Below are positions 49,522-64,000 of a stretch of DNA of 64,000 bases, one piece after another. The stretch is from the NCBI GenBank assembly GCA_015057585.1, contig SVEF01000013.1:27054-91053 (forward strand), given 5' to 3'. The position numbers and the translations under genes are program-made. Every line of letters begins with the position of its first letter. Positions within the stretch are counted from its first letter, which is position 1. The notes under the pieces were generated by a model. That model made no database searches. It worked only from the letters and a program-made list of their open reading frames with translations, and was not told the origin of the DNA. This DNA comes from Lachnospiraceae bacterium (GTDB taxonomy: Bacteria > Bacillota > Clostridia > Lachnospirales > Lachnospiraceae).

Positions 49522-50856
49522 ATGAAGAAACCGGGTTTTTATTTGAATCTGCATGACAGAGAAAAAAATGTTCCGTTTGAATCGCATGACCCGTCTATGA
49601 TGTATGACGTAAAGAGCGGGTTTTATTATTCCTATTCCACGGATGCAGCCATTACGTCTGAATACCGGCAGGGAATTCCGGTGCGCAGAAGCCGGGATTT
49701 GGTTTCTTTTGAGTTTGTGGGATATGCATTATCCGAAGAGGCAGTCAGAGAAGGACGTGATAACGGAGAGGGGAACCGGCCGACCGGAGGCTTTTGGGCT
49801 CCTTATGCTGAGTGTGTTGAAGGAGAGTACCGGCTGTATTATTCAGCAACAAAGGCATTCGGAAGTTCGGAATCCAGAATCTGGCTTGCGGTAGCAAACC
49901 ATCCGGAGGGACCGTTTGAAAACCGTGGGGTTGTGGTAGATACGTGGGGAACCACGGATGCAGAGCCAAACGCGATTGACCCTCATGTGGTAGACTGTCC
50001 GGACGGAAGGAAGTTTCTGGTGTATGGCTCTTTTTTTGGCGGGATTTACTTAAAAGAACTTTCGGTACAGACAGGACTTTGTATGGACGGTGATATCCAT
50101 GCGCTTGGATGCAGAATTGCCGTGAAGCCGGAAAATTCTTATATAGACGGTCCGGAGGGTGCGGCAGTTATGTACCATCCGGAAAAGAAATTATATTATC
50201 TGTTTTTATCCTACGGATGGTTGGGAGATGATTATGATATCCGTGTCGGAGTCAGCCCGAAGGTGGACGGTCCGTATCTGGACAGAGAGGGAAAATCCCT
50301 GAATGGGGAGAGTCTCGGGCAAAAGGTGGCAGGAAGCTACCGCTTTCCGGCGGAGAAGCCTTACGCGGCAGAAGGAGAGAATTGGAAATTTGCAGGCTTT
50401 CGCGGTCCGGGACACGGCGTGCCATTTTACGCACCGGAAGCAGACCGGTTTTTCTTTGTCCATCATATCAGGGACGGGGCAGAATCGCTTTGTCATAAAC
50501 CAAAGAATCCGTGGAAAAAGCCTTCGTACCGGATGCATTATATGGTCGTCCGTGCCATGTATTTTGCAGGGGACTGGCCGGTATTATGCCCGGAACCGTA
50601 TGCGGAGGAAGATGCGGCGGCACTTCTTGCGACAGAAGCAGGACAAGAGATGCTGTCTGAGATAAAAGAGTGGGAATGGCTGACCTGTTCGAATACCTGC
50701 AATGAAATTGCGGTTTCAAAACAGGGAAATTTGCCGGAATTGCCGGTAGACGGCGTTATCGGAATCTGTTATGATTATGAAAACAGCAGACCGGTGAAGT
50801 TTTTATCGGCCTACACTCATAAAAACGAAATTTTATGGGCCAAAGCGATAGTGTAA
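49522..50856 (+). CDS. GH43-family glycoside hydrolase (intracellular)
   Basis: HDPSMMYDVKSGFYYSYSTD...FWAPYAE...DPHVV propeller motifs. Confidence 0.7.
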   Translation: MKKPGFYLNLHDREKNVPFESHDPSMMYDVKSGFYYSYSTDAAITSEYRQGIPVRRSRDLVSFEFVGYALSEEAVREGRDNGEGNRPTGGFWAPYAECVEGEYRLYYSATKAFGSSESRIWLAVANHPEGPFENRGVVVDTWGTTDAEPNAIDPHVVDCPDGRKFLVYGSFFGGIYLKELSVQTGLCMDGDIHALGCRIAVKPENSYIDGPEGAAVMYHPEKKLYYLFLSYGWLGDDYDIRVGVSPKVDGPYLDREGKSLNGESLGQKVAGSYRFPAEKPYAAEGENWKFAGFRGPGHGVPFYAPEADRFFFVHHIRDGAESLCHKPKNPWKKPSYRMHYMVVRAMYFAGDWPVLCPEPYAEEDAAALLATEAGQEMLSEIKEWEWLTCSNTCNEIAVSKQGNLPELPVDGVIGICYDYENSRPVKFLSAYTHKNEILWAKAIV

Positions 50857-50873
50857 GAATAAGGGGAAGCAGA

Positions 50874-51107
50874 ATGAAAAACTATACCAAATTGGATATT
50901 GTAAAAGATATCATTTTCTTTTTTATCACAGTAGCGGTGGCATATGGATATATTCTGTTACTGCTTTTGATACTTAGTTTTATGACGAGCAGATATCTTC
51001 CGATGAAGTTTGACGATATGCTGGTATATTCCGGCATAGGGACGTTTATCATCGGAGTCTGGTATATTGTAAAAAAGGTAAAGAAATATCAAAATAAGAC
51101 GGAGTAG
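50874..51107 (+). CDS. Small membrane protein (2 TM helices)
   Basis: ATG with an AAGGGGAAG RBS and two hydrophobic helices. The track ORF begins at 50835. Confidence 0.4.
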   Translation: MKNYTKLDIVKDIIFFFITVAVAYGYILLLLLILSFMTSRYLPMKFDDMLVYSGIGTFIIGVWYIVKKVKKYQNKTE

Positions 51108-52030
51108 TGAAAAGAATGGAAGTAAAAGCAGTGCAAAACAACAGAATCGGATGGCTGGATGCATGGAAAGGGTTTGCAACACTTTTGGTGGTGCTCGGAC
51201 ACATTGCGGATGGATATCTGGATGCAGGGATGTTTCCCGGGTATACGGGAGTCTTACAGACAGGCTATGATATTATTTACTCGTTCCATATGCCGTTGTT
51301 TTTTGTCTTAAGCGGATATGCCTTTTACGTTGCTTATGCAAAAAACAGAGAAGTAAAGAAACGGAGCATGTGGCTGCAGATAGGAAATATTGCCGTGGTT
51401 TATATTCTTTTCAGTGTATTGCAATGGTGCTTTAAGATGGTATTTGCCGGACAGGTGAACACGACATACACATGGAAACATTTATGGATGATTCCGGTAA
51501 GGACCATGGCTCCGTACTGGTATCTGTATGTTTTGGTATTGCTGTATATGGTTACATGGTTTATAGAGCGGGTAAAACAGCCGGAATGGCTGAAAGTGTT
51601 TTTTTTTCTCGGTTTATATTTTTTAAGTGATTTGTTGCCGGATAGTATATTATTTGAAATAAAGAGAACTTTATATTATAGTTTCTTCTTTTATTTTGGA
51701 ATTTATCTTGCAAAAGCAGTGGCACCGGTTTTGGCAGAGAAACTGGAACCGCTCATAAAACATTACCGGAAAATACCGAAACCGGGCGTGCTTCGGTGGA
51801 TTGGCACTTACAGCCTGGAGATTTATGTCACTCATTGTTTTATTACTGCGGCAAACCGGAGGATTTTACCGGCAATCGGTATTACAAACTTCTATTGTAA
51901 TATAGTAACTAATTTTATTATGGCGGTTCTTTTGCCGGTAGCGGCAGCCTGTATATTGAAACATTTACGGTTGCATTCGTGGATTTTCCGACCGGTAACG
52001 TCATTAACAAAACATACCAGTGTAAGGTGA
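51107..52030 (+). CDS. Acyltransferase family 3 membrane protein (OatA-like O-acyltransferase)
   Basis: N-terminal GWLDAWKGFATLLVVLGH motif and about 9 TM helices. Confidence 0.65.
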   Translation: MKRMEVKAVQNNRIGWLDAWKGFATLLVVLGHIADGYLDAGMFPGYTGVLQTGYDIIYSFHMPLFFVLSGYAFYVAYAKNREVKKRSMWLQIGNIAVVYILFSVLQWCFKMVFAGQVNTTYTWKHLWMIPVRTMAPYWYLYVLVLLYMVTWFIERVKQPEWLKVFFFLGLYFLSDLLPDSILFEIKRTLYYSFFFYFGIYLAKAVAPVLAEKLEPLIKHYRKIPKPGVLRWIGTYSLEIYVTHCFITAANRRILPAIGITNFYCNIVTNFIMAVLLPVAAACILKHLRLHSWIFRPVTSLTKHTSVR

Positions 52031-52093
52031 GCAAAACTGCAAATACTACTAGCGTAACATCAAAAACAAATTTTATTTTTGGAGGTAAGAGTT

Positions 52094-52258
52094 ATGTCTA
52101 GAAGTAGAAACAGAGTCGAAGTTCCTGAAGCAAAGAGCGCTATGGATCAGTTCAAGATGGAAGTTGCATCTGAACTCGGTGTGCCTTTAACAAACGGTTA
52201 CAATGGTAACCTTACAAGTGCACAGAACGGTTCTGTCGGCGGCGAGATGTACCGTTAG
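52094..52258 (+). CDS. Small acid-soluble spore protein, alpha/beta type (54 aa; absent from the ORF track)
   Basis: MSRSRNRVEVPEAKSAMDQFKMEVASELGVPLTNGYNGNLTSAQNGSVGGEMYR carries the conserved SASP alpha/beta core (EIASELGV ... TSRQNGSVGGEM). The GGAGGTAAG RBS sits 3 nt upstream. Confidence 0.85.
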   Translation: MSRSRNRVEVPEAKSAMDQFKMEVASELGVPLTNGYNGNLTSAQNGSVGGEMYR

Positions 52259-52364
52259 ATTTAAAAGCCTTTATTTATGCGGTTTGTAGCAGTTTTGTTT
52301 TATGTTTTTACACCAAATTTACACCAATTTTTTAAAAGCGTAAAAGAGTATTGCAACTTCCTAA

Positions 52365-52396
52365 AAGCCTATAATTTTTATAGGCTTATATTTTTT
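52365..52396 (+). terminator. Terminator hairpin at the left edge of the AT-rich island
   Basis: AAGCCTATAA-ttt-TTATAGGCTT followed by ATATTTTTT, immediately preceding motif copy 1. Confidence 0.55.
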
Positions 52397-52397
52397 A

Positions 52398-52434
52398 CTC
52401 ATAAACTTAAACACACAATTATCTAATATATAAG
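52398..52434 (+). repeat. Island motif copy 1 (CTCATAAACTTAAACACACAATTATCTAATATATAAG)
   Basis: Member of a 9-copy family with consensus CAYAnrAMTTAAACAnnnnnnnnATCTAATAnrTAGr. Confidence 0.8.
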
Positions 52435-52471
52435 TCAATGTAGTGTATTTTCATATATGGAAGGTTTTTAC

Positions 52472-53029
52472 ATGAATCGCGCATCTCAATTAAAAAAATT
52501 ACTTCAAGCAAAAGAATCTCTAATCCTTTCTAAAAAATCAGATAACCCGTCCTACAGTAGTAAAGATAAATATCATGCAACTTTAAATAATTTTTTACAT
52601 CAAGAAATTCCCTTTATCCGAGATATTATTGACATTATGAACGTTGCACCAAATAATGGTGACGACTTTAGGAATACTCCATATCAGAGAACGCCTATTT
52701 CAGTCATAAACGAAGCTGGTAGCTTTTTTGTAGGATACCTTGGAAAAGGACATCGGATTGATGAGAAATTTGGATTTGCAGTGGGGTTTGATTTTGAAAC
52801 CTCAAAACCTATCGTTAAGAATTTCATTCGAGATAATCGTTGCAGTTATAAAACCTGTCCTCTCGAAGAGTCTTCTAAAACACTCCAAAAAGATTTGGAA
52901 GACTTTATAGAAATGTTTCAAACTTTTAAAGTCGATTTTTATGCCTGTTATGAAAACTTAATGTTAGCTCTTTCTGATGAAATCGATTTGCTTAAAAATG
53001 AATGTACCCCACCCGTAATGAATGTGTAG
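52472..53029 (+). CDS. Hypothetical protein (island cassette 1)
   Basis: AT-rich ORF. ATG at 52472 with GGAAGG 7 nt upstream; the track ORF begins at 52457. Confidence 0.45.
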   Translation: MNRASQLKKLLQAKESLILSKKSDNPSYSSKDKYHATLNNFLHQEIPFIRDIIDIMNVAPNNGDDFRNTPYQRTPISVINEAGSFFVGYLGKGHRIDEKFGFAVGFDFETSKPIVKNFIRDNRCSYKTCPLEESSKTLQKDLEDFIEMFQTFKVDFYACYENLMLALSDEIDLLKNECTPPVMNV

Positions 53030-53214
53030 CCTTGCCGAATTGTTGAAATACCTGTCGATATAAAATTGTTTACATTTTTCCTTTTGAGTGATACTCTCTA
53101 TATAAGGAAAAAGGAGGCTAATAAACAACAATACCCAGTCGAAAAAATCCCCTTTTGTAGGGGACAGACTCCTAAAGATGAATAACAAAAATGATTATGA
53201 ATTAGGAGGTTATT

Positions 53215-53430
53215 ATGGCTAGAGGTAAAAGAAATCTTCCTTTAGAAACACAGCTAGAACAAATTACTCAAAACATTGCAGCTATGGAGGAAAATTTAGT
53301 AGAATTAAAGAAAGCTAAAAATGAAATTGAAGAACAAATCAGAATGAATCAGTTGGCTGAATTAAATGATTTAATTTCTGAAAAAGGATTGAGTTTTGAA
53401 CAAGTGAAAGAGTTATTAAATAAGGAGTAG
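53215..53430 (+). CDS. Small coiled-coil protein (71 aa)
   Basis: AGGAGG RBS. Heptad-rich (LEQITQNIAAMEENLVELKKAKNEIEEQI). Terminator at 53425-53452. Confidence 0.45.
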   Translation: MARGKRNLPLETQLEQITQNIAAMEENLVELKKAKNEIEEQIRMNQLAELNDLISEKGLSFEQVKELLNKE

Positions 53431-53457
53431 TCCCAAGTGACTACTCTTTTTGTTTTA

Positions 53458-53495
53458 CTCACAGACTTAAACAAAATTCTATCTAATAGATAGAG
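53458..53495 (+). repeat. Island motif copy 2
   Basis: CTCACAGACTTAAACAAAATTCTATCTAATAGATAGAG, directly after the terminator. Confidence 0.8.
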
Positions 53496-53518
53496 ACATA
53501 AAATGCAACTCTGGAATA

Positions 53519-53548
53519 TTAGACAATAAGGTAATTTTATTGTATAAT
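53519..53548 (+). promoter_or_regulatory. Sigma-A-type promoter (TTAGAC, 18 nt spacer, extended -10 TGtATAAT) for the HipA-like gene
   Basis: ttagacaataaggtaattttattgtataat, about 25 nt downstream of motif copy 2. Confidence 0.5.
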
Positions 53549-53594
53549 TGAGTTGTAATCCATTTGAAAACATATATCAACAAGGAGAATGTTT

Positions 53595-54800
53595 ATGAAT
53601 GTAAAAAATTTAACACTCATGATGAAAGATACCCCAGTTTTATCCGTAAATTTAGACGAAGGGGAATATATTGTTCTGAATGAAAACTTGCTTCCTTTTG
53701 ATATGAAAGGCCGATTACGCAAACAACCAGAATTAACCGGGAATGTAAGTTATGACGCAAAACAATTAGCAATTTCCGCTATCAAAAATTATGAACAGTT
53801 ACTTGCTTTTTTATCGCATAGAGTATTACCAATTAGTAGAGAAAACGCAAAAAAAATTTATCAGTTATTTGGGGTAGAACAATTACAGGATGAAGTTTCA
53901 AAAGCTAAAATAGCAATCTTGTGCAGAGCCGTGTCTTTGCAAGATAATTACTGGGTGAAATTAGAAGATGAAAAAATAACTTGGAACGACGTTAATCTTA
54001 GAACAAACAGCCTCAGCGAAATTGTTACTCAAGTCTCCTTGCACGGAAGTTCATTATCCCTATCCGGTATGGTTCATACTCCAGAACTTACTGGACAAGG
54101 AGCTTATGCTAAAGCTTGGATAAGAGAAGAGGATGGATTATATCTACACAAAAGAGGGGCGAATGGTTCTTGGGAATCGAAAATTGAAGTTATGGTTTCA
54201 AATTTATTAGATTTTTGTAATGTCCCACATTTGAAATACGAGTCTTCTTCTTCTGTAGATATACAAACTCAAGAGTCCGTTTATACCTGTAAATGTAAAT
54301 GTATGACTACAGAAGATATTTCCATCCTTTCCGGAATGGATTTTACTTCTTGGTGTAATGTTAGAGGTGTAGACCCTTATAAAGAAGCTTTAAAAATTGA
54401 CCCGGAAATGATATATAAAATGTGGATAGTTGACTATTTGATTTCAAATCGAGATAGACATGGATTAAATTGGGGCTTTTTTTATGATTGTAATACTATG
54501 GAGATTTTAGGATGCCACCCTCTCTACGACCACAATAATGCTTTTGATAATGCCTTGATGTATGATAAAGACGCAACTTATTTATACGACCAAAGGATGA
54601 CTATGAGAGAAGCTGCAAAGCGAGCTATGGAACACGTTGATTTTCACTTTACGAAAGAAATCACCAGAGACGATTTTCTTACCGAAAGACAATATAAATC
54701 TTTTATGGACCGAACCCAAGAGCTTGGTATAAAAATTAAATCATCAATGTCAGAGGCCGAATCAGAAGGAATTGTTCCATCGACATTAACGTTTTCGTAA
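53595..54800 (+). CDS. HipA-like Ser/Thr kinase domain protein
   Basis: C-terminal WIVDYLISNRDRHGLNWGFFYD matches the HipA catalytic loop (D-x-H-x-x-N). ATG at 53595 with AAGGAGA 7 nt upstream. Confidence 0.5.
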   Translation: MNVKNLTLMMKDTPVLSVNLDEGEYIVLNENLLPFDMKGRLRKQPELTGNVSYDAKQLAISAIKNYEQLLAFLSHRVLPISRENAKKIYQLFGVEQLQDEVSKAKIAILCRAVSLQDNYWVKLEDEKITWNDVNLRTNSLSEIVTQVSLHGSSLSLSGMVHTPELTGQGAYAKAWIREEDGLYLHKRGANGSWESKIEVMVSNLLDFCNVPHLKYESSSSVDIQTQESVYTCKCKCMTTEDISILSGMDFTSWCNVRGVDPYKEALKIDPEMIYKMWIVDYLISNRDRHGLNWGFFYDCNTMEILGCHPLYDHNNAFDNALMYDKDATYLYDQRMTMREAAKRAMEHVDFHFTKEITRDDFLTERQYKSFMDRTQELGIKIKSSMSEAESEGIVPSTLTFS

Positions 54801-54820
54801 TAATTTAAGAGGTGTTTATA

Positions 54821-55291
54821 ATGATAGCAGGATTTCGAAATGAATATTATTTTTTAAGTAATTTCTATATTTGCAATATCAATTATAACGGTAAAACTTA
54901 TCAAAGTGCTGAGGCTGCATTTCAAGCTCAAAAGTCATTGGATGAAAATATTCAGTGGCAATTTACCGGATTGTCTCCAAGAGATGCCAGAACCCAAGGA
55001 AAAAGAGTTCCACTCAGACCGGATTGGGAAGAGGTGAAAGAAGACATTATGAAAGAAATTCTTATCATCAAATTCTCCAAGCCGGAATTGAAAGAAAAAT
55101 TACTTGAAACCGGAGATGAGTTTTTAGAAGAAACAAATGGATGGCATGATAACCATTGGGGGAATTGTAACTGTGAACGATGCCGGAATATTCCGGGTAA
55201 AAACATGCTTGGTAATTTATTGATGGATGTTCGTAAGAATTTTCAAGAGGAAATATTCAGGAATGAGAACCCTCCATATATGCAATGTTAA
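54821..55291 (+). CDS. NADAR (YbiA/DUF1768) family protein
   Basis: FLSNFY...YQSAEAAFQAQK...W...HWG pattern. ATG at 54821 with an AAGAGGTG RBS. Confidence 0.6.
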   Translation: MIAGFRNEYYFLSNFYICNINYNGKTYQSAEAAFQAQKSLDENIQWQFTGLSPRDARTQGKRVPLRPDWEEVKEDIMKEILIIKFSKPELKEKLLETGDEFLEETNGWHDNHWGNCNCERCRNIPGKNMLGNLLMDVRKNFQEEIFRNENPPYMQC

Positions 55292-55334
55292 TAAATATTT
55301 TTTTGTAATCATTTTATTTAAAATATTTCTTAAT

Positions 55335-55375
55335 ACACATGAACTTAAACAGAAGGCCATCTAATAAGTAGAAAC
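55335..55375 (+). repeat. Island motif copy 3
   Basis: ACACATGAACTTAAACAGAAGGCCATCTAATAAGTAGAAAC. Confidence 0.8.
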
Positions 55376-55458
55376 TGATATTATTTAAAGAAATGAGCTA
55401 TTACCTCATGTTAAAAGAAATTATGTTTGGCAACTGCACCTAAAGGAGAATATGTTTT

Positions 55459-55878
55459 ATGAAAAGTTCGCCTGTTATTCTTGACAATATGGTCTATTAC
55501 AATGGAGCAGAACAATATAAAAACGAAAAATGGGTATTCTTTTCAAACTATCCCCACAGTCATAGTGTTGAAACCGACATTACAATTATACATTCCGGTT
55601 TGATTTGTAGAGTCAATCCCACAACTACTGACCGATTTGGAAAGACTTTACCGGATAACTTTGCGGTAGAACTTCCTGCCGACCTTGGATTGTATGAACA
55701 ATCAGATGCTGTCAACAAAAAATTCGATTTGTGTACTGAACTCAGAGAAGAGTATGAAAAACGATTTTACGAACAAGGTATTGTCCCTGAAGGGTATTTT
55801 AGTTGGGAAAGACCTTGTTATCTTGGATGTGAAAAAGAATATGGTTTAAAAAAGCCGGAAAAAACCAACAAAGCGTAA
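55459..55878 (+). CDS. Hypothetical protein (139 aa)
   Basis: AAAGGAGAA RBS 8 nt upstream. No recognisable domain. Confidence 0.4.
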   Translation: MKSSPVILDNMVYYNGAEQYKNEKWVFFSNYPHSHSVETDITIIHSGLICRVNPTTTDRFGKTLPDNFAVELPADLGLYEQSDAVNKKFDLCTELREEYEKRFYEQGIVPEGYFSWERPCYLGCEKEYGLKKPEKTNKA

Positions 55879-55901
55879 TCACAAATGCAGGAGTTTGTCT
55901 T

Positions 55902-57326
55902 ATGAATAAACACGATTTGGTCTATGAAAAAATGCGAGGAGCATACATTAACCTAATGAACTATCACTCTTATAGTGTTCAAGAATTATATCTAACTTTA
56001 GAAAAAATTTTTGACGAATGTTATAAACAAGGTCTTGTGAAAGAAGGCTACGAGTTTATTTGCGATGTAGGGTGCAATGTAGCGTTACGATTTGTGTTTT
56101 ATAAGGATATTACCGAACTTTATTCGACAAATCTTAAACAAAAAGACGAACCCGAGGGCTGTCTTGTATCGAGGGATATGCCTTTACGCTATGCGGCAAA
56201 TAAAGAAACTTCTACACTTCTTGGGTACGAAAGAGCTCTTAAAGATATGGGGTTACATATAGCAAAAACGGCCGAACGGTCATTTTTTGTAGCATTAAAC
56301 AAATTAAAACCCGGAGTTGTTGTTGCTTTTACGGAAGGCAAAATGTATGTTTGCCGTGAAAATAAAGACTTAAAAATAACACTAGACCGTGTTTTTGACG
56401 GGGACATTAAAAATATCAACCCATCTGCATTCGTTAAAACAGAAACCATTGAATTGGATTTAACGGACTCTATTAGCGTTCAGCGATTTTACAATCAAAA
56501 TGCCAAAAATCTCACATGGTCTTGTGAAGTAGAGTACGCTGTTCTTAGTGACTGTATCAAAGAACTGGAAGGTTTGAAACGAGGAATTTCTCGATTCCAA
56601 TCAAAAGCTTTTCAAGTTGGACCGGTATCGTTCGTCGGGAAAAAATCTGTTTGGTCTAATCATGTAAAATGGTATGACAATACCGGTGCTCAAATTACAG
56701 ATGAACAACTTTCTTACCTAATCGGATTGCTTCATACACAACCAATTACAACAAAATATATCAGAAAAGAGCCGACATTCGAGAAGATTGCTTCTGATGA
56801 AGAATTTCGATTAAAAATCGAACGTTTACTAGACGACAAACAATATGACCTTGCATATCAAGAAATGTTAAAATATTCAAAAACACATACAAACGATTTA
56901 ATCATAAAAACAGATGGCTTTTTAAGAAATAATAAGAACGAATATATTGCCGGGTCTATTGTTTTTAGAGATGGACAAGCATTTCAACTATCTTATGAAG
57001 ATAACGATTTATCTAAAGATGTTGTAAAAACGTCTGAATTAAATAAATCGGATTTTATCGCACTTTGTCAATGTAAATATACCGAAACTTATGAACGGGT
57101 TTTTGCTAAAGCTGCAGAAGAAATTGAAAAAGAATATCATTTAAAATTAGAAGATATGACGGCAACGCAAAAACGAATTGTTAAGCAACAAGTAGAAAAA
57201 GAAATGGATAAAACCTCTGGCATTATATTAAAAAAAGAAAACATAATGTCAGGAACGACTGATGCTTCCGACATTATAAACGAAATGTCAGAAGACAACT
57301 CCATCAATATTTTGTTACAACGTTGA
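55902..57326 (+). CDS. Hypothetical protein (474 aa)
   Basis: Long AT-rich ORF with a GCAGGAG RBS. No recognisable domain. Confidence 0.4.
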   Translation: MNKHDLVYEKMRGAYINLMNYHSYSVQELYLTLEKIFDECYKQGLVKEGYEFICDVGCNVALRFVFYKDITELYSTNLKQKDEPEGCLVSRDMPLRYAANKETSTLLGYERALKDMGLHIAKTAERSFFVALNKLKPGVVVAFTEGKMYVCRENKDLKITLDRVFDGDIKNINPSAFVKTETIELDLTDSISVQRFYNQNAKNLTWSCEVEYAVLSDCIKELEGLKRGISRFQSKAFQVGPVSFVGKKSVWSNHVKWYDNTGAQITDEQLSYLIGLLHTQPITTKYIRKEPTFEKIASDEEFRLKIERLLDDKQYDLAYQEMLKYSKTHTNDLIIKTDGFLRNNKNEYIAGSIVFRDGQAFQLSYEDNDLSKDVVKTSELNKSDFIALCQCKYTETYERVFAKAAEEIEKEYHLKLEDMTATQKRIVKQQVEKEMDKTSGIILKKENIMSGTTDASDIINEMSEDNSINILLQR

Positions 57327-57344
57327 TAGAAAGGATATTTTTTA

Positions 57345-57872
57345 ATGACAGCTTCTTTTTATATTTCTTTTATTTTAGTCGCACTTGTTATTGCTACTTT
57401 ATTTGCAATTTATAGCGGCTATAAAACATCAGTAATAAAAAATAGAAACAACTATATATACATTACTTCTCCACTTATTGAACTATTCGGCCCTTTTGAT
57501 AAGGATATCTGTAATTATTGCTTGTATTTTGTAGATGCTGAATATATTCAAATTGAACACGATGATGAATATTTTTATAAGTCTGTAGAAAAAAATAGAG
57601 AATCACTAACTCAGTGTATTTTAGGATATCAGCAGATTTATGAACGATTAAAATCTGGAGAAACGATGGAACACTTATTTTATGACCCGGATTTATCTCA
57701 AATTGCTCACTCTTGTTTTGACGTCGGACCGAGAATCTTTGGAACCGTTATTAACAACAAAATTGTATTAAATAATGGCCGACATCGTTATGTTATTGCC
57801 AAAGAACTGGGAATAAAATTACCTGTATATATAGCGTCCGAGACGGTAATTAATATTGATTTAAACAAATAA
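57345..57872 (+). CDS. Membrane-anchored protein with a ParB/Srx-like nuclease-fold domain
   Basis: N-terminal TM helix. C-terminal LNNGRHRYVIAKELGIKLPVYI resembles the ParB N-terminal DGxHR motif. Confidence 0.4.
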   Translation: MTASFYISFILVALVIATLFAIYSGYKTSVIKNRNNYIYITSPLIELFGPFDKDICNYCLYFVDAEYIQIEHDDEYFYKSVEKNRESLTQCILGYQQIYERLKSGETMEHLFYDPDLSQIAHSCFDVGPRIFGTVINNKIVLNNGRHRYVIAKELGIKLPVYIASETVINIDLNK

Positions 57873-57936
57873 ACAACCACATAAAAACAAATGACAAAGA
57901 GGGTATTCATAGATACTCTCTTTTTTTTTGTTTGTT

Positions 57937-57974
57937 TCACACAGAATTAAACATATTTTTAACTAATATATAAA
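57937..57974 (+). repeat. Island motif copy 4
   Basis: CACACAGAATTAAACATATTTTTAACTAATATATAAAT, directly after the terminator at 57897-57929. Confidence 0.75.
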
Positions 57975-58035
57975 TAAAGACTATACAAAAGAACGAAGGA
58001 AGGGGAGATTACTCCCCTATTCCCCTCAATAAAAC

Positions 58036-58239
58036 TCAAAATAACGACAATATCGTTAAGCCTGTACTGACAGCGGCTCCGGACAACATGACATTACAGA
58101 ATCGTTTGGCTCTGGAAATTAGTTCGTTTCGTTGGACGAAAATTCCCACCAGAAACACAAATAAACTCAACATAGCCAGAAAAACAAATACTCCGGCAGC
58201 AAACAAAAATATAAATGTAGTTGACTTCATCCTTATCAC
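58036..58239 (-). CDS. Small hydrophobic protein (two TM helices) on the opposite strand
   Basis: AAAGGAGGTGATAAGG RBS on the minus strand. Hairpin AGGGGAGATTACTCCCCT at 57998-58015 acts as its terminator. Confidence 0.45.
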   Translation of the reverse strand: MIRMKSTTFIFLFAAGVFVFLAMLSLFVFLVGIFVQRNELISRAKRFCNVMLSGAAVSTGLTILSLF

Positions 58240-58334
58240 CTCCTTTAAAATAATTATCTGTTCAGAAGCTAGGTCTAAGTCAAGCTGATTTTTTTTATTT
58301 TTTTAGTTGTATTTTTAATAAATAAAATTCTATT

Positions 58335-58372
58335 ACACATAGAATTAAACAGATTTTTAACCAATATGTAGG
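58335..58372 (+). repeat. Island motif copy 5 (diverged 3' half)
   Basis: ACACATAGAATTAAACAGATTTTTAACCAATATGTAGG. Confidence 0.7.
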
Positions 58373-58490
58373 TAAACACAACTTGTTGTCAATCTTTACA
58401 AATTTTAATAATTTTATATTTTTCGACTTATAATACGTAGGAATATAGTCTCGTTTTGTCTGACATTTTAATAAAAGTATGTGTTTTTTA

Positions 58491-58519
58491 TTGACATATT
58501 GAATAATATGATTTATAAT
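58491..58519 (+). promoter_or_regulatory. Consensus sigma-A promoter TTGACA, 17 nt spacer, TATAAT
   Basis: ttgacatattgaataatatgatttataat, which lies inside the track ORF 58481.. and implies the true start is downstream. Confidence 0.55.
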
Positions 58520-58585
58520 GAAACCTGCACTATTATGGATTTTTGTGTCCTATTGGTGACAACACACAAATGGAGAAAATTTAAG

Positions 58586-59080
58586 ATGAATTCAAAAGAT
58601 GATTTTGAGCGATATTCAAGCCTGTATTACTATCAATTATACAAAAGTGCTTATGCTCACAAAAAATTTATATACGGCGCTATCACAACCATAGTAATTC
58701 TTGGAGCACTCGTTCCTTTTGCGGCCCAATTCATTTTGCCGTTTTTCTTTCCTGAATGTAAAATTGCCGGGGCAGAAATTTGGAACCAATATGTAAGTAT
58801 TGTGTTGGGAGTTGTTGCTACTTTAATGAGTATCATATCATTAAAGCTTAGTTTTGACAATATGACCCAATCTTTTGAATCTGAACGAAGAACACGAGAG
58901 TTATTCGCAAAATTAGAAGGACACTTAATTGATATTGAACATAATCAAAACAACTTATTAACAAAAACAGATATTATGTCTCTTTTGAAAAATGGATATC
59001 ATTTTGAAGAAGAGAATGATATAATTTCCCAATGGAACTCACCAAAAGCAACAAGTAAGAGTGAAAGCAATGATATTTAG
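58586..59080 (+). CDS. Hypothetical membrane protein (164 aa, 2 TM helices)
   Basis: ATG at 58586 with a TGGAGAAAAT RBS, downstream of the promoter. Confidence 0.45.
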   Translation: MNSKDDFERYSSLYYYQLYKSAYAHKKFIYGAITTIVILGALVPFAAQFILPFFFPECKIAGAEIWNQYVSIVLGVVATLMSIISLKLSFDNMTQSFESERRTRELFAKLEGHLIDIEHNQNNLLTKTDIMSLLKNGYHFEEENDIISQWNSPKATSKSESNDI

Positions 59081-59094
59081 GAGGTTATGATTTT

Positions 59095-59601
59095 ATGTGT
59101 GTGCAAAATGTAAATGCAACGATTTCATTATTTTCAGACGTAAGAAATGCAGAAGTTCAAGGAGCTCAAGAATTCATAAGACCATTTGATATCATTGTTT
59201 CAAAAACAATCAATGACAACAAATATATTGGAGGTTTTTATATAGTAATAGATATTGTATTATTATCTACCACAAATGAAGGAAAAAAAGAAGACAATGT
59301 TGTTTATAACAAACAAAAAATAGATGTTATTGTTAGATTGACAAAATCTAGTAAAGACTTTCAAAAAAGATTATCTTCAGATATAGATGAATTTACAATA
59401 GATACCTCTAATGAAAACATTATAAAAAGAAATGCATGTGTTGAATATGTTGGATATAAGAAAATTAAAAAAATTGATATTGATGGGATTAAATTAAGTC
59501 CAGAAGCAGGAACAGGAGATTATATTTTCAAAGTATTAGTAAAACGACCATGTGATAACGAGTACCAAGTACAATCTGTTTATAATTTACGAATAGAATA
59601 A
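59095..59601 (+). CDS. Hypothetical protein (168 aa)
   Basis: AGGAGG RBS. Terminator hairpin at 59626-59657. Confidence 0.4.
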   Translation: MCVQNVNATISLFSDVRNAEVQGAQEFIRPFDIIVSKTINDNKYIGGFYIVIDIVLLSTTNEGKKEDNVVYNKQKIDVIVRLTKSSKDFQKRLSSDIDEFTIDTSNENIIKRNACVEYVGYKKIKKIDIDGIKLSPEAGTGDYIFKVLVKRPCDNEYQVQSVYNLRIE

Positions 59602-59921
59602 TAATGAAAAAAAAGAGAGTCAGGGAAATAAATTCCCCGACTCTTTTTATATTATAAATATTGTTTTAATCAATCCACTTAAGGGTTCCATAATGGCTAT
59701 AACTATTGTTGTTGATGTCATTTAAATAAGACGCCTTTATTATAGGCGTCTTTTTTATTCTACCAAAAAAAATGTAAAAACTATCTAAAAGTGTCGTATG
59801 GTGTCGTGTTTTATAATTTGTATTTTTTGCCAGATTCCTTTAACATATAATAGTTACGTTTGGTTATATATGTTGAGGAACTTTTATATTGCTCTTTTTT
59901 TTGTTGTCCTAATAACACCAA

Positions 59922-59961
59922 ACACATGAACTTAAACATAATATTATTTAATATATAGAAA
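59922..59961 (+). repeat. Island motif copy 6 (5' half conserved, 3' half diverged)
   Basis: ACACATGAACTTAAACATAATATTATTTAATATATAGAAA. Sits in tandem with copy 7, 30 nt downstream. Confidence 0.65.
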
Positions 59962-59991
59962 TGAAAGCCAAAATTCTTTCTATTTTTAATT

Positions 59992-60031
59992 ACACATAAA
60001 CTTAAACAGAGAGTTATCTAATAAGTAGAAC
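59992..60031 (+). repeat. Island motif copy 7
   Basis: ACACATAAACTTAAACAGAGAGTTATCTAATAAGTAGAAC, followed by an extended -10 TGGTATACT at 60071-60079. Confidence 0.8.
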
Positions 60032-60107
60032 AAATAATTAAAACGACCAGTATACGAAAACGACAAAATATGGTATACTGAATAAAGATTTGAAAGGAGA
60101 ATACCCT

Positions 60108-61631
60108 ATGAAGAATTTTATTAAAGCACATACAAAATTATGGATTGGTTGTATCGTGGGTGGTATTGCAGTTATAGGAATTATGCTTTTCGTGGTTCCT
60201 CAATTTGTGGAGCAGCCTGATGTAACTCCTACGCCAACTATAGCTCCAACTAATACACAGGCTCCAACAGTAACTATAGAGCCTACAACCGAACCGACTT
60301 CTGAACCAACTGTAAATCCAACAAACACTATAACACCTACAGAAATTCCTGTGGTAACTGTAGAGCCAACTGTAGAACCAACTAAGGCTCCTACCAACAC
60401 ACCTATAGTAACCCCAACATTCACTCCGGTTCCTACACCAACGTTGAGTCCTACTCCGAGTCCTACACCTTTTATTCCTCCTACACCAGTACCTACAAAC
60501 ACACCGACTCCTACACCGAGTCCTACACCTACTAATACTCCTACTCCTACTGTTACTAATACTCCTACACCAAGTCCTACTAATACTCCTACACCAACAC
60601 CAACAGTAGTACCAAGCACATTACGTGCAAATGTACAGATGGGCGATAATGTATATTTTAAATACTATGATGATGGAACATTAGTAGTTACCGGTACGGG
60701 TAGTACATGGGATTTTGCAAACAACGATGATATGTTAAATGTTTTTAGCAAAAACTCTGGTATTGATAAAACTTCTCTTGTGAAAAACAATTACTTAATG
60801 AAAGAAACAACCGTGATTATCATCAATGAGGGAGTTACTCGAATTGGCGATTGTGTTTTTATTACAAACTATCAAAATACAACAGACGTTTATTTACCTA
60901 GTTCTCTCAAATCTGTTGGAAAGTATGGTTTCTACAGAGTTGGTTACATTTATAAAAATACAACTTGGCATAATCTCAATCTTGATAAATTAACATTTAT
61001 GGACACTTCTTTCGGTAAAACCAATGCACTTGATGGTTATACAAAGGAAGAAATTGAAAAAGTTCAGGTAACACCAACACCTACACCAAGTCCAACGGTA
61101 ACACCTACTCCAAACCCGGCAAAACCAAGAGAAATCTTTGTTGTAAAGGGTAGTAGCGAAATAGTAATGACCTATATTGACAACGGAACTTTAGTAGTTA
61201 CCGGTACGGGGACTTTAAATGAATGTTTGAATTTCACTCGTTATTGTCAGCGAAATAATATTCCTCTTACATCTGAAGTGTTAAAGCATTTAGTAATTGA
61301 AGAAGGATTTACTGATTTATATGAAATGTGTCTTGATTATACACATTATAGTGGTCTCCCGGTACTTTTCGAAACAATTACTCTACCAAAGTCTTTAACC
61401 AAAGTGTACAATAGAAAAGACCATTCTTCTTATGGAGCTGGTGGTCAATATTGTGGTTGCATTAAAGTTGGTGGAAAGTTAATTGCTTATGATAAAAATG
61501 GCAATAAATTTCAATTTACTGTAACAAAACTGCCATCAGAAAAACATTATGGAGCTATTGTTCATGAAATTTTCAACTGGCTTAATGATGGAACTTATAG
61601 TCAATACGGTACGCTTAAGTGGATTGATTAA
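60108..61631 (+). CDS. Membrane-anchored surface protein: N-terminal TM helix, ~150-aa Pro/Thr-rich linker and two BspA-like leucine-rich-repeat-type domains
   Basis: PTPTPSPTPTNTPTPT linkers. Domains have the pattern TVIIINEGVTRIGDCVFITNYQNTTDVYLPSSLKSVGKYGF. ATG at 60108 with an AAAGGAGAA RBS. Confidence 0.5.
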   Translation: MKNFIKAHTKLWIGCIVGGIAVIGIMLFVVPQFVEQPDVTPTPTIAPTNTQAPTVTIEPTTEPTSEPTVNPTNTITPTEIPVVTVEPTVEPTKAPTNTPIVTPTFTPVPTPTLSPTPSPTPFIPPTPVPTNTPTPTPSPTPTNTPTPTVTNTPTPSPTNTPTPTPTVVPSTLRANVQMGDNVYFKYYDDGTLVVTGTGSTWDFANNDDMLNVFSKNSGIDKTSLVKNNYLMKETTVIIINEGVTRIGDCVFITNYQNTTDVYLPSSLKSVGKYGFYRVGYIYKNTTWHNLNLDKLTFMDTSFGKTNALDGYTKEEIEKVQVTPTPTPSPTVTPTPNPAKPREIFVVKGSSEIVMTYIDNGTLVVTGTGTLNECLNFTRYCQRNNIPLTSEVLKHLVIEEGFTDLYEMCLDYTHYSGLPVLFETITLPKSLTKVYNRKDHSSYGAGGQYCGCIKVGGKLIAYDKNGNKFQFTVTKLPSEKHYGAIVHEIFNWLNDGTYSQYGTLKWID

Positions 61632-61701
61632 CAACCAAATAAACTTTCCTTTTATAGAGGGAATAGAGAAGGTAGGATTTTTATATCCTACCTTTTTTTC
61701 T

Positions 61702-61740
61702 TCACATAAAATTAAACAGACAGTCATCTAATATATAGGG
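61702..61740 (+). repeat. Island motif copy 8
   Basis: TCACATAAAATTAAACAGACAGTCATCTAATATATAGGG, directly after the terminator at 61670-61700. The downstream reading frame is open from the last base of the motif. Confidence 0.8.
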
Positions 61741-63666
61741 CTTACTTTTGCCTCAGCTCCGGCTACCGGAACTTTAACTCAATCTGTAACAGTTCAACTG
61801 ACTATCGTAAGTCAAGAATATAAAGTTTCTTTAGATGCAAATAACGGAAAAAATAATGCAAATTATGACTCAGACGGCCCGTTTTCTGTGTTTTATAAAG
61901 AAACCACCAACAATAATATTTCTCAGTACACTCCATCAAGAACAGGATATATCTTTTCCGGATGGATGAATTCAATAAATGACAATGACGGTGTGTATGT
62001 TTATGACAAAAATGGCATCTTTGTTAATAATACAGGCTATTGGACAAATGACATATGGACTGCATTAAGCGGAGCCATGCTTTATGCACAATGGTCTCCT
62101 AGAACTTATCTTGTCACGTTCGATGCAAATGGTGGTATTTGTGCGGAACAAACCAAAAGTGTAACTTTTGAAGCAACTTATGGTACACTTCCTACACCAA
62201 CAAGAACAGGATATGTTTTTTCAGGATGGTATACTGCAAAAACAGGTGGAACTCTTGTTACAAGTTCTACAACTGTTTCAACAGCTTCAGACCACACTTT
62301 GTATGCACAGTGGACCCCATCTCCATATACGGTTTCTTTAGACCAGCAGGGTGGTTGGAATGGAACTATTAGCGTTATTGCGGATTACGAACAACCTATG
62401 CCAACTCCAATTACGTTGCCGGAAAAACAATTTACTGTTACTTTTGATGGAACCGGAGGTACTCCGGAGGTTCCTTCGTTACAAGCTGTTTGTACATTTT
62501 TAGGATATTTTGCATCAAGAGGTGGCGTCGGAACTCAGTATTACACAAGTACAGGAGCTTCTGCCCATATTTGGGATGTACCTCAAAATTCAACAATATA
62601 TGCAAACTGGCAAACCTCAGAAATTGTTTTACCAAATGCATCTCGAGATGGATATTCGTTTTCCGGATGGTTTTCTGATAGAGTTAATACCGACTTTATT
62701 GGAAATGCCGGAGAATATTATCAGGTAAATGATAATACAACTCTTTATGCATCGTGGACCGCAAACACATATAATGTCTTTTTTGACGCAAATACAGGAT
62801 ATTGTTATTTAGAAAAAAAAGAAGTTTTATATGACGACCGTTATGGCGAACTTCCTTTAGCAACCGTTAGAAAAGACGGAACATTCTTCGACGTTGATGG
62901 AGAATGGGTAAGACCTCAAGATTCAATCCTTTATGCTCACTGGTCGGCTAATACTTACATCGTTGGCGGTATGGACCTTGACGACACGCTTACTTCCAGA
63001 GATGAAATCAATGCAAAGATGGTTATTGTGCTTGATGAAGCAACAGACCAGTGGGGTATTAAAGTAACTCGTGTAGAAATCAAAAACATTATGCCTCCTC
63101 GTGATATTCAGGAAGCGATGGACAAGCAGATGAAAGCAGAACGCGAAAAGAGACAAACCTTACTGGAAGCTCAGGCACACAGAGAAGCTTCTGTAACAAG
63201 AGCAGAAGGTGACAAACAAGCAGCAATTCTTAAAGCCGAAGCGGAAAGAGATGCGGCTATTGCAAGAGCTACCGGTGAAGCAGAAAGTATTAGACTCGTT
63301 TACGAAGCCGAAGCGAATGGTCTTAAGTTGCTCGCAGAAGCCGGTGTAAATGAAACGGTACTTGCTTTAAAGAAAGTAGAAGCCTTAAAAGAACTCGGTC
63401 ATGGACAGGCAACCAAGATTGTGGTTCCTACAGAAATTGCAAGTTTAGCAGCAGATATGACGATTAAGGGAGAGCTTCTTGACATTGCGGATAAAGCAAA
63501 CATCACTCCAGAAATTCCAATCGTACAAAATCAGGACGATTGTTGTGATGACGACAATCGCACCACAACAACAAAAGATTTAAAAGAACAACAGAAACAA
63601 AACTTCAAATCTATGTCAAAAGAAGAGCGAACAGAACTTTTGGATAAAGTACTACATCGTAAGTAA
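61732..63666 (+). pseudogene. Chimeric, 5'-truncated ORF: Listeria-Bacteroides (Flg_new-type) surface repeats without start codon or signal peptide, fused in frame at about 62950 to the C-terminal half of an SPFH/band-7 domain protein
   Basis: The frame is open from 61732 with no ATG/GTG/TTG until the GTG at 61888. Repeats show YxVxFDANGG...GYxFSGW...LYAxW. From GGMDLDDTLTSRDEINAKMVIVLDEATDQWGIKVTRVEIKNI...AEREKR the sequence is a stomatin/HflK-like SPFH C-terminus. GC rises at the junction. Confidence 0.5.
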
Positions 63667-63673
63667 TTGACAA

Positions 63674-63704
63674 AACCCCCTCTAACATGAGGGGGCTTTT
63701 TTTT
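63674..63704 (+). terminator. Rho-independent terminator
   Basis: CCCCCTC-taacat-GAGGGGG followed by CTTTTTTTT. Confidence 0.7.
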
Positions 63705-63705
63705 A

Positions 63706-63744
63706 CTCATAAAATTAAACAAATTTTTATCTAATAGATAGATA
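63706..63744 (+). repeat. Island motif copy 9
   Basis: CTCATAAAATTAAACAAATTTTTATCTAATAGATAGATA, about 40 nt upstream of the next ATG. Confidence 0.8.
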
Positions 63745-63784
63745 CCTAATTACAAGAAATTTCAAACAGTATAGGAAAAATAAT

Positions 63785-64000
63785 ATGGAAAAGTGCGGTG
63801 TTTTTTTAGCAAGAATGCAACCGGTTCATAATGCTCATCTACATATGGTACGAAGAGCTCTAAAAGAATGTGATAAAGTTTTAGTTGTCCTTACGGAATA
63901 CAAAACAAAGCTTAACGAACTCCATGATTTAATCAAAGAAAATCCCTTTCGTAGAGGATATGAAGCAAATGTAAATTATGGTAAAGGCTATTATAAGCTT
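63785..64000 (+). CDS. Nucleotidyltransferase of the NadM/NMN-adenylyltransferase-like cytidylyltransferase family, N-terminal part (continues beyond the window)
   Basis: GVFLARMQPVHNAHLHMVRRALKECDKVLVVL matches the G-R-F-Q-P-x-H-x-G-H (H/T)xGH motif region of the archaeal-type NMNAT/cytidylyltransferase fold. AGGAAAAA RBS. Confidence 0.45.
   Translation, partial: MEKCGVFLARMQPVHNAHLHMVRRALKECDKVLVVLTEYKTKLNELHDLIKENPFRRGYEANVNYGKGYYKL

Follow-up and report, generated by a model that had tools for sequence, protein, structure and literature searches.

The window analysed here is a 64-kb stretch of a Lachnospiraceae metagenome contig, and its last 11.7 kb, from position 52250 on, hold an AT-rich block of co-oriented genes that starts inside a spore protein gene and is punctuated by a recurring intergenic motif. 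The transcription units of this block, from left to right, are p185; p71; a HipA-like kinase gene with a NADAR gene; p139, p474 and p175; a transcript antisense to a 64-aa open reading frame (ORF); p164 with p168; a surface protein with Pro/Thr (PT) linkers; a Flg_new-SPFH fusion; and the stub of an NMNAT-like gene that reaches the end of the window (Table 1). A first-pass annotation of the sequence had described this part as an accessory island of independently terminated, functionally unrelated cassettes. Terminator-like sites are indeed enriched in the island (19 observed compared to 7.5 ± 2.3 expected from shuffled sequence, about 2.5-fold); several units, however, are operons of two or three genes (HipA-like plus NADAR, p139-p474-p175 and p164-p168), so that not every gene has a terminator of its own. 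Nor do the cassettes look independent, as the units share one motif of 36-42 nt and thereby resemble a single regulon.

The motif emerged from repeat finding as a nine-member family of intergenic direct repeats with the consensus CnCA-N5-TTAAACAnA-N5-AnYYAATAnRTAR. This pattern has nine exact matches in the 64-kb window versus 0.00 expected, and all nine are located on the plus strand, in intergenic positions and between 52.4 and 63.75 kb. Scored with a position weight matrix (total information about 56 bits over 42 positions), the nine copies reached 43-53 bits, while the rest of the 64 kb, on either strand, scored at most -1.6. Five of the nine copies begin 8-14 nt past the stem of an intrinsic terminator, right behind its T-run, and eight are followed by a plus-strand start codon 38-227 nt downstream; the exception is copy 4. 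One or two additional copies, one of them weaker, are present in a structural variant of the island (variant A, see below).

A further copy was identified on an unrelated 3-kb contig from a different sequencing run (L027), which carries the sole known homologues of p474 (39% identity) and, behind it, of p139 (42%). There, a terminator is followed at the same 8-14-nt distance by TTTTACACAATTTCTTAAACAGAAACCCAGCTAATAAGTAGAG, which matches the pattern and lies about 60 nt upstream of the genes. In a pairwise alignment of this intergenic region with that of the window, about 36 of 43 motif positions are identical, and the surrounding DNA is unalignable. The motif has thus stayed nearly intact, as the sole conserved intergenic block, beside proteins that have diverged to about 40% identity, which argues that it is under selection. 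Such retention is a phylogenetic footprint of function.

Outside this group of sequences the motif was rarely, if ever, encountered. The strict pattern had no match in IMG/VR (2.9 M contigs), in the GTDB representative genomes or in a scan of JGI metagenome contigs that was non-exhaustive, as it missed Ga0187907_10003011, Ga0216347_10002967 and Ga0216341_10003092, each with 8-9 copies. A relaxed pattern gave none in IMG/VR and one single-copy match to a JGI contig, which is probably due to chance. With the 27-nt core of the motif, IMG/VR returned 72 single matches, none above 25 bits (true copies score 39-53) and none on a contig with multiple copies. Rfam gave nothing at 50-64 kb at E<=1, and a literature search on the motif returned nothing relevant, a CapK/CapS paper among its results being unrelated.

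Table 1 Features of the AT-rich block and its left flank (positions in the 64-kb window)
Feature	Coordinates	Strand	Remarks
Alpha/beta-type small acid-soluble spore protein (SASP) gene, 3'-truncated	52094..52258	+	Pfam SASP 1.1e-22, profile positions 1-48 of 59; truncation from alignment to L019
Intrinsic terminator hairpin	52365..52387	+	T-run abuts motif copy 1
Motif copy 1	52398..52433	+	38 nt upstream of the p185 start codon
p185	52472..53029	+	Orphan protein; gene also called on independent contigs
p71	53215..53430	+	Small coiled-coil-like protein; terminator at 53422-53449
Motif copy 2	53458..53493	+	Sigma-A-type promoter TAGACA-17-TATAAT at 53520-53548
HipA-like Ser/Thr kinase	53595..54800	+	401 aa; first gene of a two-gene unit
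NADAR-domain protein	54821..55291	+	Pfam NADAR 9.8e-24; phrog_1017 7.7e-40
Motif copy 3	55336..55371	+	Upstream of p139-p474-p175; likely orthologue of the L027 copy
p139	55459-55878	+	Orphan; first gene of the three-gene unit 55459..57872
p474	55902-57326	+	Orphan; second gene of the three-gene unit
p175	57345-57872	+	Orphan; third gene of the three-gene unit
Terminator	57896..57923	+	T-run abuts motif copy 4
Motif copy 4	57938..57973	+	No plus-strand ORF behind it; antisense into 58036-58239 (-)
Motif copy 5	58336..58371	+	Perfect sigma-A promoter TTGACA-17-TATAAT at 58491-58519
p164 and p168	58586..59601	+	Two-gene unit; p164 with two transmembrane segments (2-TM) and a weak DUF4231/SLATT-like match, p168 an orphan
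Bidirectional terminator	59616-59644		Adjoins the inverted PT507-like relic
Inverted relic of a PT507-like gene	59669..59716	-	Last 16 codons (INNNSYSHYGTLKWID-stop)
Motif copy 6	59923..59958	+	First of a tandem pair
Motif copy 7	59993..60028	+	70 nt after copy 6
Surface protein PT507	60108..61631	+	507 aa, membrane-anchored; Pro/Thr linkers, two BspA-LRR-like modules
Terminator	61670..61693	+	T-run abuts motif copy 8
Motif copy 8	61703..61738	+	3' edge 61738|61739 is the divergence point of variants A and B/C
Flg_new (Listeria-Bacteroides-repeat) surface-protein gene, internal fragment	61739..62957	+	Frame open to the motif
SPFH/Band-7 gene, C-terminal 236 codons	62958..63666	+	Fused in frame to the Flg_new fragment; core-like GC, GC3 0.32
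Terminator	63676..63695	+	T-run abuts motif copy 9
Motif copy 9	63706..63741	+
NMNAT/cytidylyltransferase-like ORF (NMNAT stub)	63785..64000	+	First 36 codons NMNAT-like, joined at ~63890 to unrelated coding sequence

The block stands apart from the rest of the window in base composition and codon usage. The mean G+C content (GC) over 1-kb windows was 0.446 for 1-52 kb (sd 0.023, minimum 0.381) versus 0.337 ± 0.037 (range 0.264-0.398) for the 12 windows past 52 kb; the island as a whole has 0.336 compared to 0.446 for the core. A maximum-likelihood two-segment model placed the single change point in GC at 51592, with a log-likelihood gain of 245. GC at third codon positions (GC3) was 0.484 ± 0.039 in core genes, with a minimum of 0.357. 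The eleven island genes range from 0.13 to 0.31 (0.246 overall), and each one falls under the core minimum; the three genes directly left of the junction, encoding a small membrane protein, an acyltransferase and the SASP, are core-like at 0.43-0.45. Codon frequencies correlate at 0.57 between core and island, compared to 0.88 between the two halves of the core, and the non-coding fraction amounts to 19% in the island versus 8% in the core. These values bear out the abrupt switch to AT-rich sequence with long spacers that the first-pass annotation had pointed out.

Two regions of deviating composition lie near the edges of the block. GC dips to 0.36-0.41 already left of the junction, at 50750-52250. 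As a matching dip (0.38-0.42) is found in the relative L019, introduced below, and GC3 in this interval is core-like, the dip reflects membrane-protein composition and not the island. The stretch at 62.96-63.5 kb has a core-like GC but is a piece of a foreign SPFH gene and does not mark the right boundary of the island.

GTDB representative genomes were scanned with the flanking GH43 protein, which yielded no close relative. The best match was L019, an uncultured Lachnospiraceae metagenome-assembled genome (MAG) whose GH43 protein is 75% identical at the amino-acid level. As in the window, the gene order in L019 is GH43-GH43-small membrane protein-acyltransferase-SASP, and the SASP is of full length (68 aa, ...GGEMVRKMIKRQEESMAGKQ). 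Beyond it follow rsmD and coaD, both named from reading their translations, and more genes of normal GC, namely a 220-aa ORF, a gene for a 452-aa membrane protein and a 415-aa minus-strand ORF, with a GC of mostly 0.35-0.46 per 500 nt. L019 has no homologue of any island protein. Nucleotide alignment to L019 places the left island junction at 52249|52250, within the SASP gene and not directly downstream of it, as had been assumed before. Homology ends after ...GGCGGCGAGATG at 52249, where the window gene continues with YR-stop; the junction thereby deletes 16 conserved C-terminal codons and leaves a protein of 54 aa. Assemblies from ENA/MEGAHIT, JGI and Logan yielded this SASP|island junction in 23 contigs. 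All 23 conspecific contigs read at the site share the neighbouring gene set including the 54-aa SASP, which is itself on record for 21 contigs. The NCBI MAG proteins MBE5951818, MBE5951824 and MBE5951829 derive from the island.

The break in GC and GC3, the arrangement in L019 (an intact SASP gene and then rsmD-coaD, without island genes) and the orphan nature of the island proteins argue for acquisition, in line with the earlier annotation; L019, although a distant relative, does not carry the block in synteny at similar GC. We therefore regard 52250-64000 as a genomic island, cut off by the window on its right side, that an uncultured gut species of the Lachnospiraceae has acquired horizontally into its chromosome and that varies between strains. 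Deviating composition and codon usage and absence from the syntenic site of a relative are generic traits of genomic islands. Of the generic traits of mobility (integrase, transposase, tRNA target or flanking repeats), integrase and transposase domains were found neither in the window nor in the 10 kb of variant A; family scans gave no integrase or phage structural gene and ARAGORN zero tRNAs in the window, as had been noted before. Att-like direct repeats of the left junction, which the annotation had proposed to look for, did not turn up either, only chance 11-13-mers. Its placement of the right boundary beyond 64 kb is consistent with AT-rich sequence persisting to 64 kb, with a motif copy close to the end, and with variant A being AT-rich for at least 19.5 kb past the SASP gene.

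Among the cargo, the HipA-like kinase matched HipA_C (1.6e-4, 21.8 bits) and HipA_2 (20.5 bits) in Pfam, both under the gathering thresholds. The assignment is backed by a partial match to the PADLOC candidate family PDC-M03A (3.6e-11), by tblastn matches of 23-29% identity to plasmid and phage loci, one of them annotated 'HipA domain-containing protein', and by DxHxxN and YD motifs in the sequence (NRDRHGLN, PLYDH). No HipB-type helix-turn-helix (HTH) antitoxin gene was found beside it: upstream lies p71, without an HTH match, and downstream the gene for the NADAR protein. The latter, a confident assignment, scored 52 bits against the NCBIfam anti-phage model DS32_2, the cut-off of which is 240. 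p185 has no match in Pfam, PHROGs, PADLOC or NCBIfam, and p474 has exactly one homologue (39% identity) among 5.8e9 clustered proteins. The prediction of a ParB-like nuclease domain in p175 is unsupported: neither Pfam at E<=10 nor PDB sequences bore it out, and an AlphaFold2 (AF2) model was unusable at a confidence (pLDDT) of 43. Surface proteins with PT linkers had also been predicted; PT507 is one, and the Flg_new repeat protein is a second surface protein. The proposed NadM-like nucleotidyltransferase is homologous in its first 36 residues, and the remainder is unrelated.

The minus-strand ORF at 58036-58239 encodes a strongly hydrophobic peptide of 64-67 aa with a weak MatE match (E=0.0066) and runs antisense to the RNA that motif copy 4 is expected to give. 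A former transporter gene could have left it behind, or the peptide could resemble a type I toxin that is paired with an antisense RNA.

The content of the island had been likened to that of defence islands. Like these and other variable hot spots, it is AT-rich and strain-variable and holds a HipA-like kinase, a NADAR protein, 2-TM proteins and, in variant A, a UvrD-like helicase. PADLOC, however, reported candidate families only, PDC-M03A and PDC-M42C (1.3e-8), and recognised no known anti-phage defence system with a full gene set, so that the label is reflected in weak candidate-family matches but not in a recognised system. In PHROGs, the HipA-like protein fell into a family of unknown function, the NADAR protein into phrog_1017 and the NMNAT stub into NMNAT/cytidylyltransferase families. 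When eight island proteins were used as one concatenated tblastn query, the HipA-like protein alone matched the phage and plasmid collections.

Exact-protein look-ups in ENA, JGI and Logan assemblies recovered structural variants of the island. The organism occurs in goat-gut enrichment cultures; enrichment samples carrying it include JGI 3300018475, 3300022654 and 3300022753 and ENA ERZ27248306 and ERZ27248351. Variant A (L020, L022 and L023) shows 100% identity with the window over 15.8 kb, starting at 45.9 kb and ending with 61738, the last base of motif copy 8, and is unrelated thereafter. Past copy 8 come genes for an orphan protein of 165 aa and a retropepsin-like one of 191 aa; a weaker motif copy, followed by genes for a membrane protein (113 aa) and an M48-like protein (210 aa); and another motif copy, behind which a Flg_new protein (1096 aa), a Cys-rich protein (523 aa), two GNAT proteins and finally a convergent UvrD-like helicase are encoded. 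It was followed for 10 kb past PT507, and its GC is still 0.27-0.40 at 19.5 kb past the SASP gene. Both proteases of variant A are encoded by motif-led cassettes: the retropepsin-like aspartyl protease (L022 12188-12763) has a DTGA motif and a Pfam match to Asp_protease_2 (1.7e-3), and the M48-like protein (L022 13303-13935) is an HExxH peptidase. The two GNAT proteins are paralogues with a common novel N-terminal domain.

Variant C (L021) equals the window up to 62957, where its Flg_new gene continues. Variant B comprises the window, L024, L029 and the 2.2-2.4-kb bubble contigs L030-L033, and was obtained from independent assemblies of at least four JGI samples and one Logan run; its Flg_new|SPFH junction was recovered in 8 contigs from at least five samples. 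All variant-B contigs end at 63.92-64.02 kb. The Logan contig L033, assembled with k=31, spans window positions 61709-63919, and the assembly graph branches at ~61739 and ~63889, which delimits the B-specific segment to 2.15 kb of stitched fragments. In variants B and C, the Flg_new ORF is open up to the motif and has neither a start codon nor a signal peptide; copy 8 is thus joined to the middle of a gene. The Flg_new-SPFH fusion (61966-63666) is annotated in GenBank as hypothetical protein MBE5951829.1. The NMNAT-like ORF matches its homologues through ...KVLVVL only and then diverges. Both variant-B junctions, at 62957 and ~63890, keep the reading frame. A third piece of wreckage is the inverted relic at 59669-59716, which forms a 37-nt inverted repeat with the intact 3' end of PT507 at 61595-61631. 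Part of what had been listed as functional cassettes is therefore wreckage, namely the Flg_new-SPFH fusion, the NMNAT stub and the inverted relic. The coexisting forms indicate that the island is actively remodelled within the population and that part of it is debris.

We suggest that the motif is a promoter, or a promoter together with an activator site, that is not read by the housekeeping sigma factor. A unit would then consist of the T-run of a terminator, the 36-42-nt motif, a 5' leader, one to three genes and again a terminator, in a moron-like array, and a dedicated sigma factor, RNA polymerase or activator that reads the motif would make the whole island act as one regulon. Its cargo consists mostly of lineage-specific orphans, along with the HipA-like kinase/NADAR pair, the 2-TM protein pair and the surface proteins. 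The island turns over rapidly by illegitimate recombination and deletion, to which we ascribe the truncated and fused genes and the coexistence of three or more structural variants. The compositional shift, the left junction, the lack of the island in L019, the motif with its placement and conservation, and the variants and gene fragments are observed directly, whereas we infer that the motif acts as a promoter, that one trans-acting factor reads it and that the donor was a phage-like or other mobile element; the account as a whole, an acquired moron-like array under a private motif-reading factor and with fast turnover, we hold to be somewhat likelier right than wrong.

A promoter reading is supported by the orientation of the motif, which always matches the coding strand of the island, and by its size, which is that of a complete promoter. 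In addition, the motif ends 38 nt before the ATG of p185 and 43 nt before that of the NMNAT stub, each with a terminator upstream; this leaves no room for another promoter and makes the motif the sole candidate for these two genes. None of the scanned sigma-70-type sites coincides with any motif copy, the nearest being separate sites 27 nt behind copy 2 and 120 nt behind copy 5. By inspection, the motif is not a housekeeping sigma-A promoter, as 11 nt separate its invariant blocks TTAAAC and (C)TAATA and no hexamer has a conserved A(-11) and T(-7). Promoters of sporulation sigma E/K/F/G, sigma-D, sigma-H/ComX, sigma-54 and T7-like type were rejected likewise, as none fits all conserved blocks. 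The closest promoter geometry is that of extracytoplasmic function (ECF) sigma factors, TTAAAC-N16-nRTA, a weak resemblance; the sigma-W consensus is TGAAAC-N16-CGTA. Promoters of the TcdR family (group 5 sigma) have a -35 element TTTACA and a -10 element GTTATA/GTTAAT (PMC4031146). This type was rejected, too: TTTACA or TTTACT occurs in 4 of 11 copies, the -10 position is variable (ATTATC, TCTATC, GCCATC, TTTAAC, CCCAGC and others), and the conserved blocks are located elsewhere. The late promoters of phage AR9 have the consensus A(-11)ACA-N6-U-A/G(+1) (quoted in PMC7598289). A similar sub-motif, AACA-N6-(T/C)A, is present in 8 of 11 copies; the likeness is of low information and does not cover all conserved blocks, and AR9 requires uracil-containing DNA.

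Several observations weigh against this account. No gene for a sigma factor, an RNA polymerase or a clear DNA-binding regulator was found in the 11.7 kb of island or the 10 kb of variant A. The sigma-A promoters at 53520 and 58491, downstream of copies 2 and 5, mean that two units may have tandem promoters; since these units have promoters of their own, they can be transcribed without the motif, which might then serve as an operator or another kind of site. Copy 4 has no plus-strand gene downstream, and a variant breakpoint at the 3' edge of copy 8 would also be expected of a recombination site. With respect to acquisition, no island-free strain of the same species was among the 23 contigs, and the nearest genome with an empty site is only about 75% identical at the protein level, so that a loss in the L019 lineage could formally explain the difference as well.

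Another possibility, to which we give well below even chance, is that a larger prophage, integrative and conjugative element (ICE) or phage-plasmid has integrated here and that the block forms its accessory arm, made up of morons or cargo, with the integrase and core genes to the right and the motif as the element's early or late promoter. This is compatible with the moron-like array preferred above and would specify the donor. Phage early regions and morons typically show such an order of promoter, gene and terminator and such a uniform gene orientation, and the NADAR and HipA-like proteins match PHROG families. The fragments at the right end offer a further lead. No full-length parent of the SPFH fragment with more than 78% identity was present in the protein collection; the closest full-length relatives are 74-78% identical and are located on contigs of 6-273 kb (L035, 273 kb; L113, 48 kb; L039, 6.3 kb; and L036) with a GC of 0.35-0.42. 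L035, L036 and L113 have the synteny dUTPase, dCMP deaminase, PspA, SPFH and PilZ in common, to which L035 and L113 add AP endonuclease and SmpB and L113 further ThyX and a primase Zn-ribbon; the neighbours in L039 are instead a tRNA, an AAA-domain ATPase and a metallophosphoesterase. With their single-strand gene arrangement, many orphan small ORFs and scattered tRNAs, and barely recognised by PHROGs, these contigs look like an uncharacterised jumbo-phage or megaplasmid lineage of gut/rumen Firmicutes. One homologue of the NMNAT stub adjoins ThyX on an AT-rich contig. A derivation of the SPFH fragment, and perhaps of the NMNAT stub, from that lineage is suggestive. The link is only suggestive because none of the SPFH contigs carries the motif: it is absent from the contigs with SPFH or NMNAT homologues (L035, L036, L037, L038, L039 and L113), and L035 has no intergenic repeat of its own.

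Further evidence speaks against a cargo arm. PHROGs and Pfam revealed no prophage structural, packaging, lysis, replication or integrase gene in about 20 kb, and Pfam scans of the window and the variant A extension gave no relaxase and no domains of type IV secretion systems (T4SS) or their coupling proteins (T4CP). Comparison at the DNA level with 50,697 phage and 72,556 plasmid records found nothing similar, no viral contig had more than one relaxed match to the motif, and the left junction lacks an att-like repeat. The comparison with known phage arrangements is similarly divided. With phage morons, or lysogenic-conversion cassettes, the island shares the bounds formed by a promoter-like element and an intrinsic terminator, an AT-rich composition deviating from the host, unrelated cargo and strain variability. 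Morons, however, normally have ordinary host-type promoters, whereas the island has at least 9-11 units in a row with one motif that is not of the sigma-A type, and no phage backbone within 20 kb. Phage SPO1, with gp28 and gp33/34, is an example of phages that have their own sigma factors and conserved early-promoter arrays. Jumbo phages with their own RNA polymerase have early-promoter arrays as well (reviewed in PMC7598289). Such arrays (T7-like, jumbo, SPO1) resemble the island in having a long conserved AT-rich motif in front of co-oriented operons with terminators in between, yet the island is chromosomal, no RNA polymerase or sigma factor gene was found, and the motif is absent from IMG/VR.

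A serious rival, though in our view an unlikely one, is that the motif is instead an operator or silencer: bound by a repressor dimer or by a protein of xenogeneic silencing, it would hold the foreign genes silent, with transcription starting from sigma-A promoters nearby. The strong sigma-A-type promoters behind copies 2 and 5 would suit such a role, as would extended -10-like sequences behind the motif at PT507 and on L027. The 3' half of the motif also contains a weak dyad, TCTA-N5-TAGA, whose arms pair at 80% of their positions when 11 copies are compared, but it is short and AT-rich and may have arisen by chance. The short leaders of p185 and the NMNAT stub hold no sigma-A promoter, and where one follows the motif, it does so at anything between 19 and 143 nt, a spread not usually seen with operators. 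A strictly one-way, asymmetric motif of 42 nt is better suited to a promoter than to a symmetric operator.

We consider it very improbable that the motif is a recombination site, or the end of a mobile element, at which cassettes are swapped, in the manner of an integron or a Xer/dif-module array, by a recombinase encoded past 64 kb. Motif copies do lie at unit boundaries, variants A and B/C part at the last base of copy 8 after 15.8 kb of identity, copy 8 is joined to the middle of the Flg_new coding sequence in variants B and C, and the tandem pair of copies 6 and 7 resembles an empty cassette. Nevertheless, only one of five mapped junctions coincides with the motif: those at 52249, 62957 and ~63890 do not, the inverted relic abuts a terminator, and the fragment 62958-63890 holds a motif copy in its interior. 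No integrase or recombinase was found in 20 kb. Integrons, including sedentary chromosomal ones, are similar to the island in their co-oriented, unrelated and mostly orphan genes, the repeated element, the cassette differences between strains and the one breakpoint at a repeat edge. They differ in that the island has no attC hairpin or R''/R' cores, most of its junctions lie off the repeat, and its units have their own promoter-like element, leaders and terminators. An IntI with attI and Pc was found neither in the 52 kb upstream nor in up to 20 kb of island. As single-stranded DNA, the motif folds with 0 to -4.5 kcal/mol (z < -2 in 2 of 9 copies) without a conserved hairpin or imperfect palindrome, and inspection revealed neither a RYYYAAC...GTTRRRY core pair nor the 11-6-11 layout of Xer sites. 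For these reasons of structure and architecture, attC sites of integrons, Xer/dif sites and HUH-hairpin sites were rejected. Nor are the units promoterless single-ORF cassettes, given leaders of 38-227 nt, terminators, multi-gene units and two sigma-A promoters.

That the region is an old, vertically inherited low-GC block or an assembly chimera, for which one may cite that every conspecific contig reaching the site has the island, that the window comes from a MAG and that variant-B contigs always break at ~64.0 kb, is scarcely tenable in view of a GC3 under the core minimum in every island gene, a SASP gene truncated relative to L019, where core genes come next, and the repeated recovery of both the SASP|island and the Flg_new|SPFH junctions.

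Anti-defence islands of conjugative leading regions offer one more comparison. Frpo-type leading-region elements are structured single-stranded DNA hairpins of a few hundred nt. The island resembles such regions in its co-oriented small accessory genes, each behind a repeated regulatory element, but the motif is unstructured and only 36-42 nt long, and no relaxase, oriT or T4SS was seen. On the available sequence, the island does not qualify as an integron, a prophage, an ICE or a known defence system. It fits best among genomic islands or moron arrays, set apart by a proposed promoter of its own and most likely forming one regulon.

A decidedly speculative and improbable extension of the promoter reading is that the RNA polymerase or sigma factor recognising the motif is not encoded by the host but supplied in trans by a mobile element or infecting phage, for instance of the phage- or plasmid-like lineage that seems to have donated the SPFH fragment and perhaps the NMNAT stub. 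The island would be silent until this element arrives, and its cassettes would be renewed from the incoming DNA, sometimes at the edge of a promoter. If so, the island could be a defence or toxin battery triggered by infection, or could parasitise the element much as a satellite does.

AT-rich accessory islands are common. What their standard description does not include is a set of at least nine units that all carry a single long motif of their own (about 56 bits), one that also persists ahead of homologues with just about 40% protein identity. The coexisting variants and in-frame fusions provide a natural record of island remodelling in one population, and the motif is a compact marker by which sister islands can be found in new assemblies. 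If the motif is a promoter, it offers a direct handle for finding its regulator, and it shows how one switch could let a gut Lachnospiraceae control a whole block of foreign genes, some of them perhaps toxic or related to defence.

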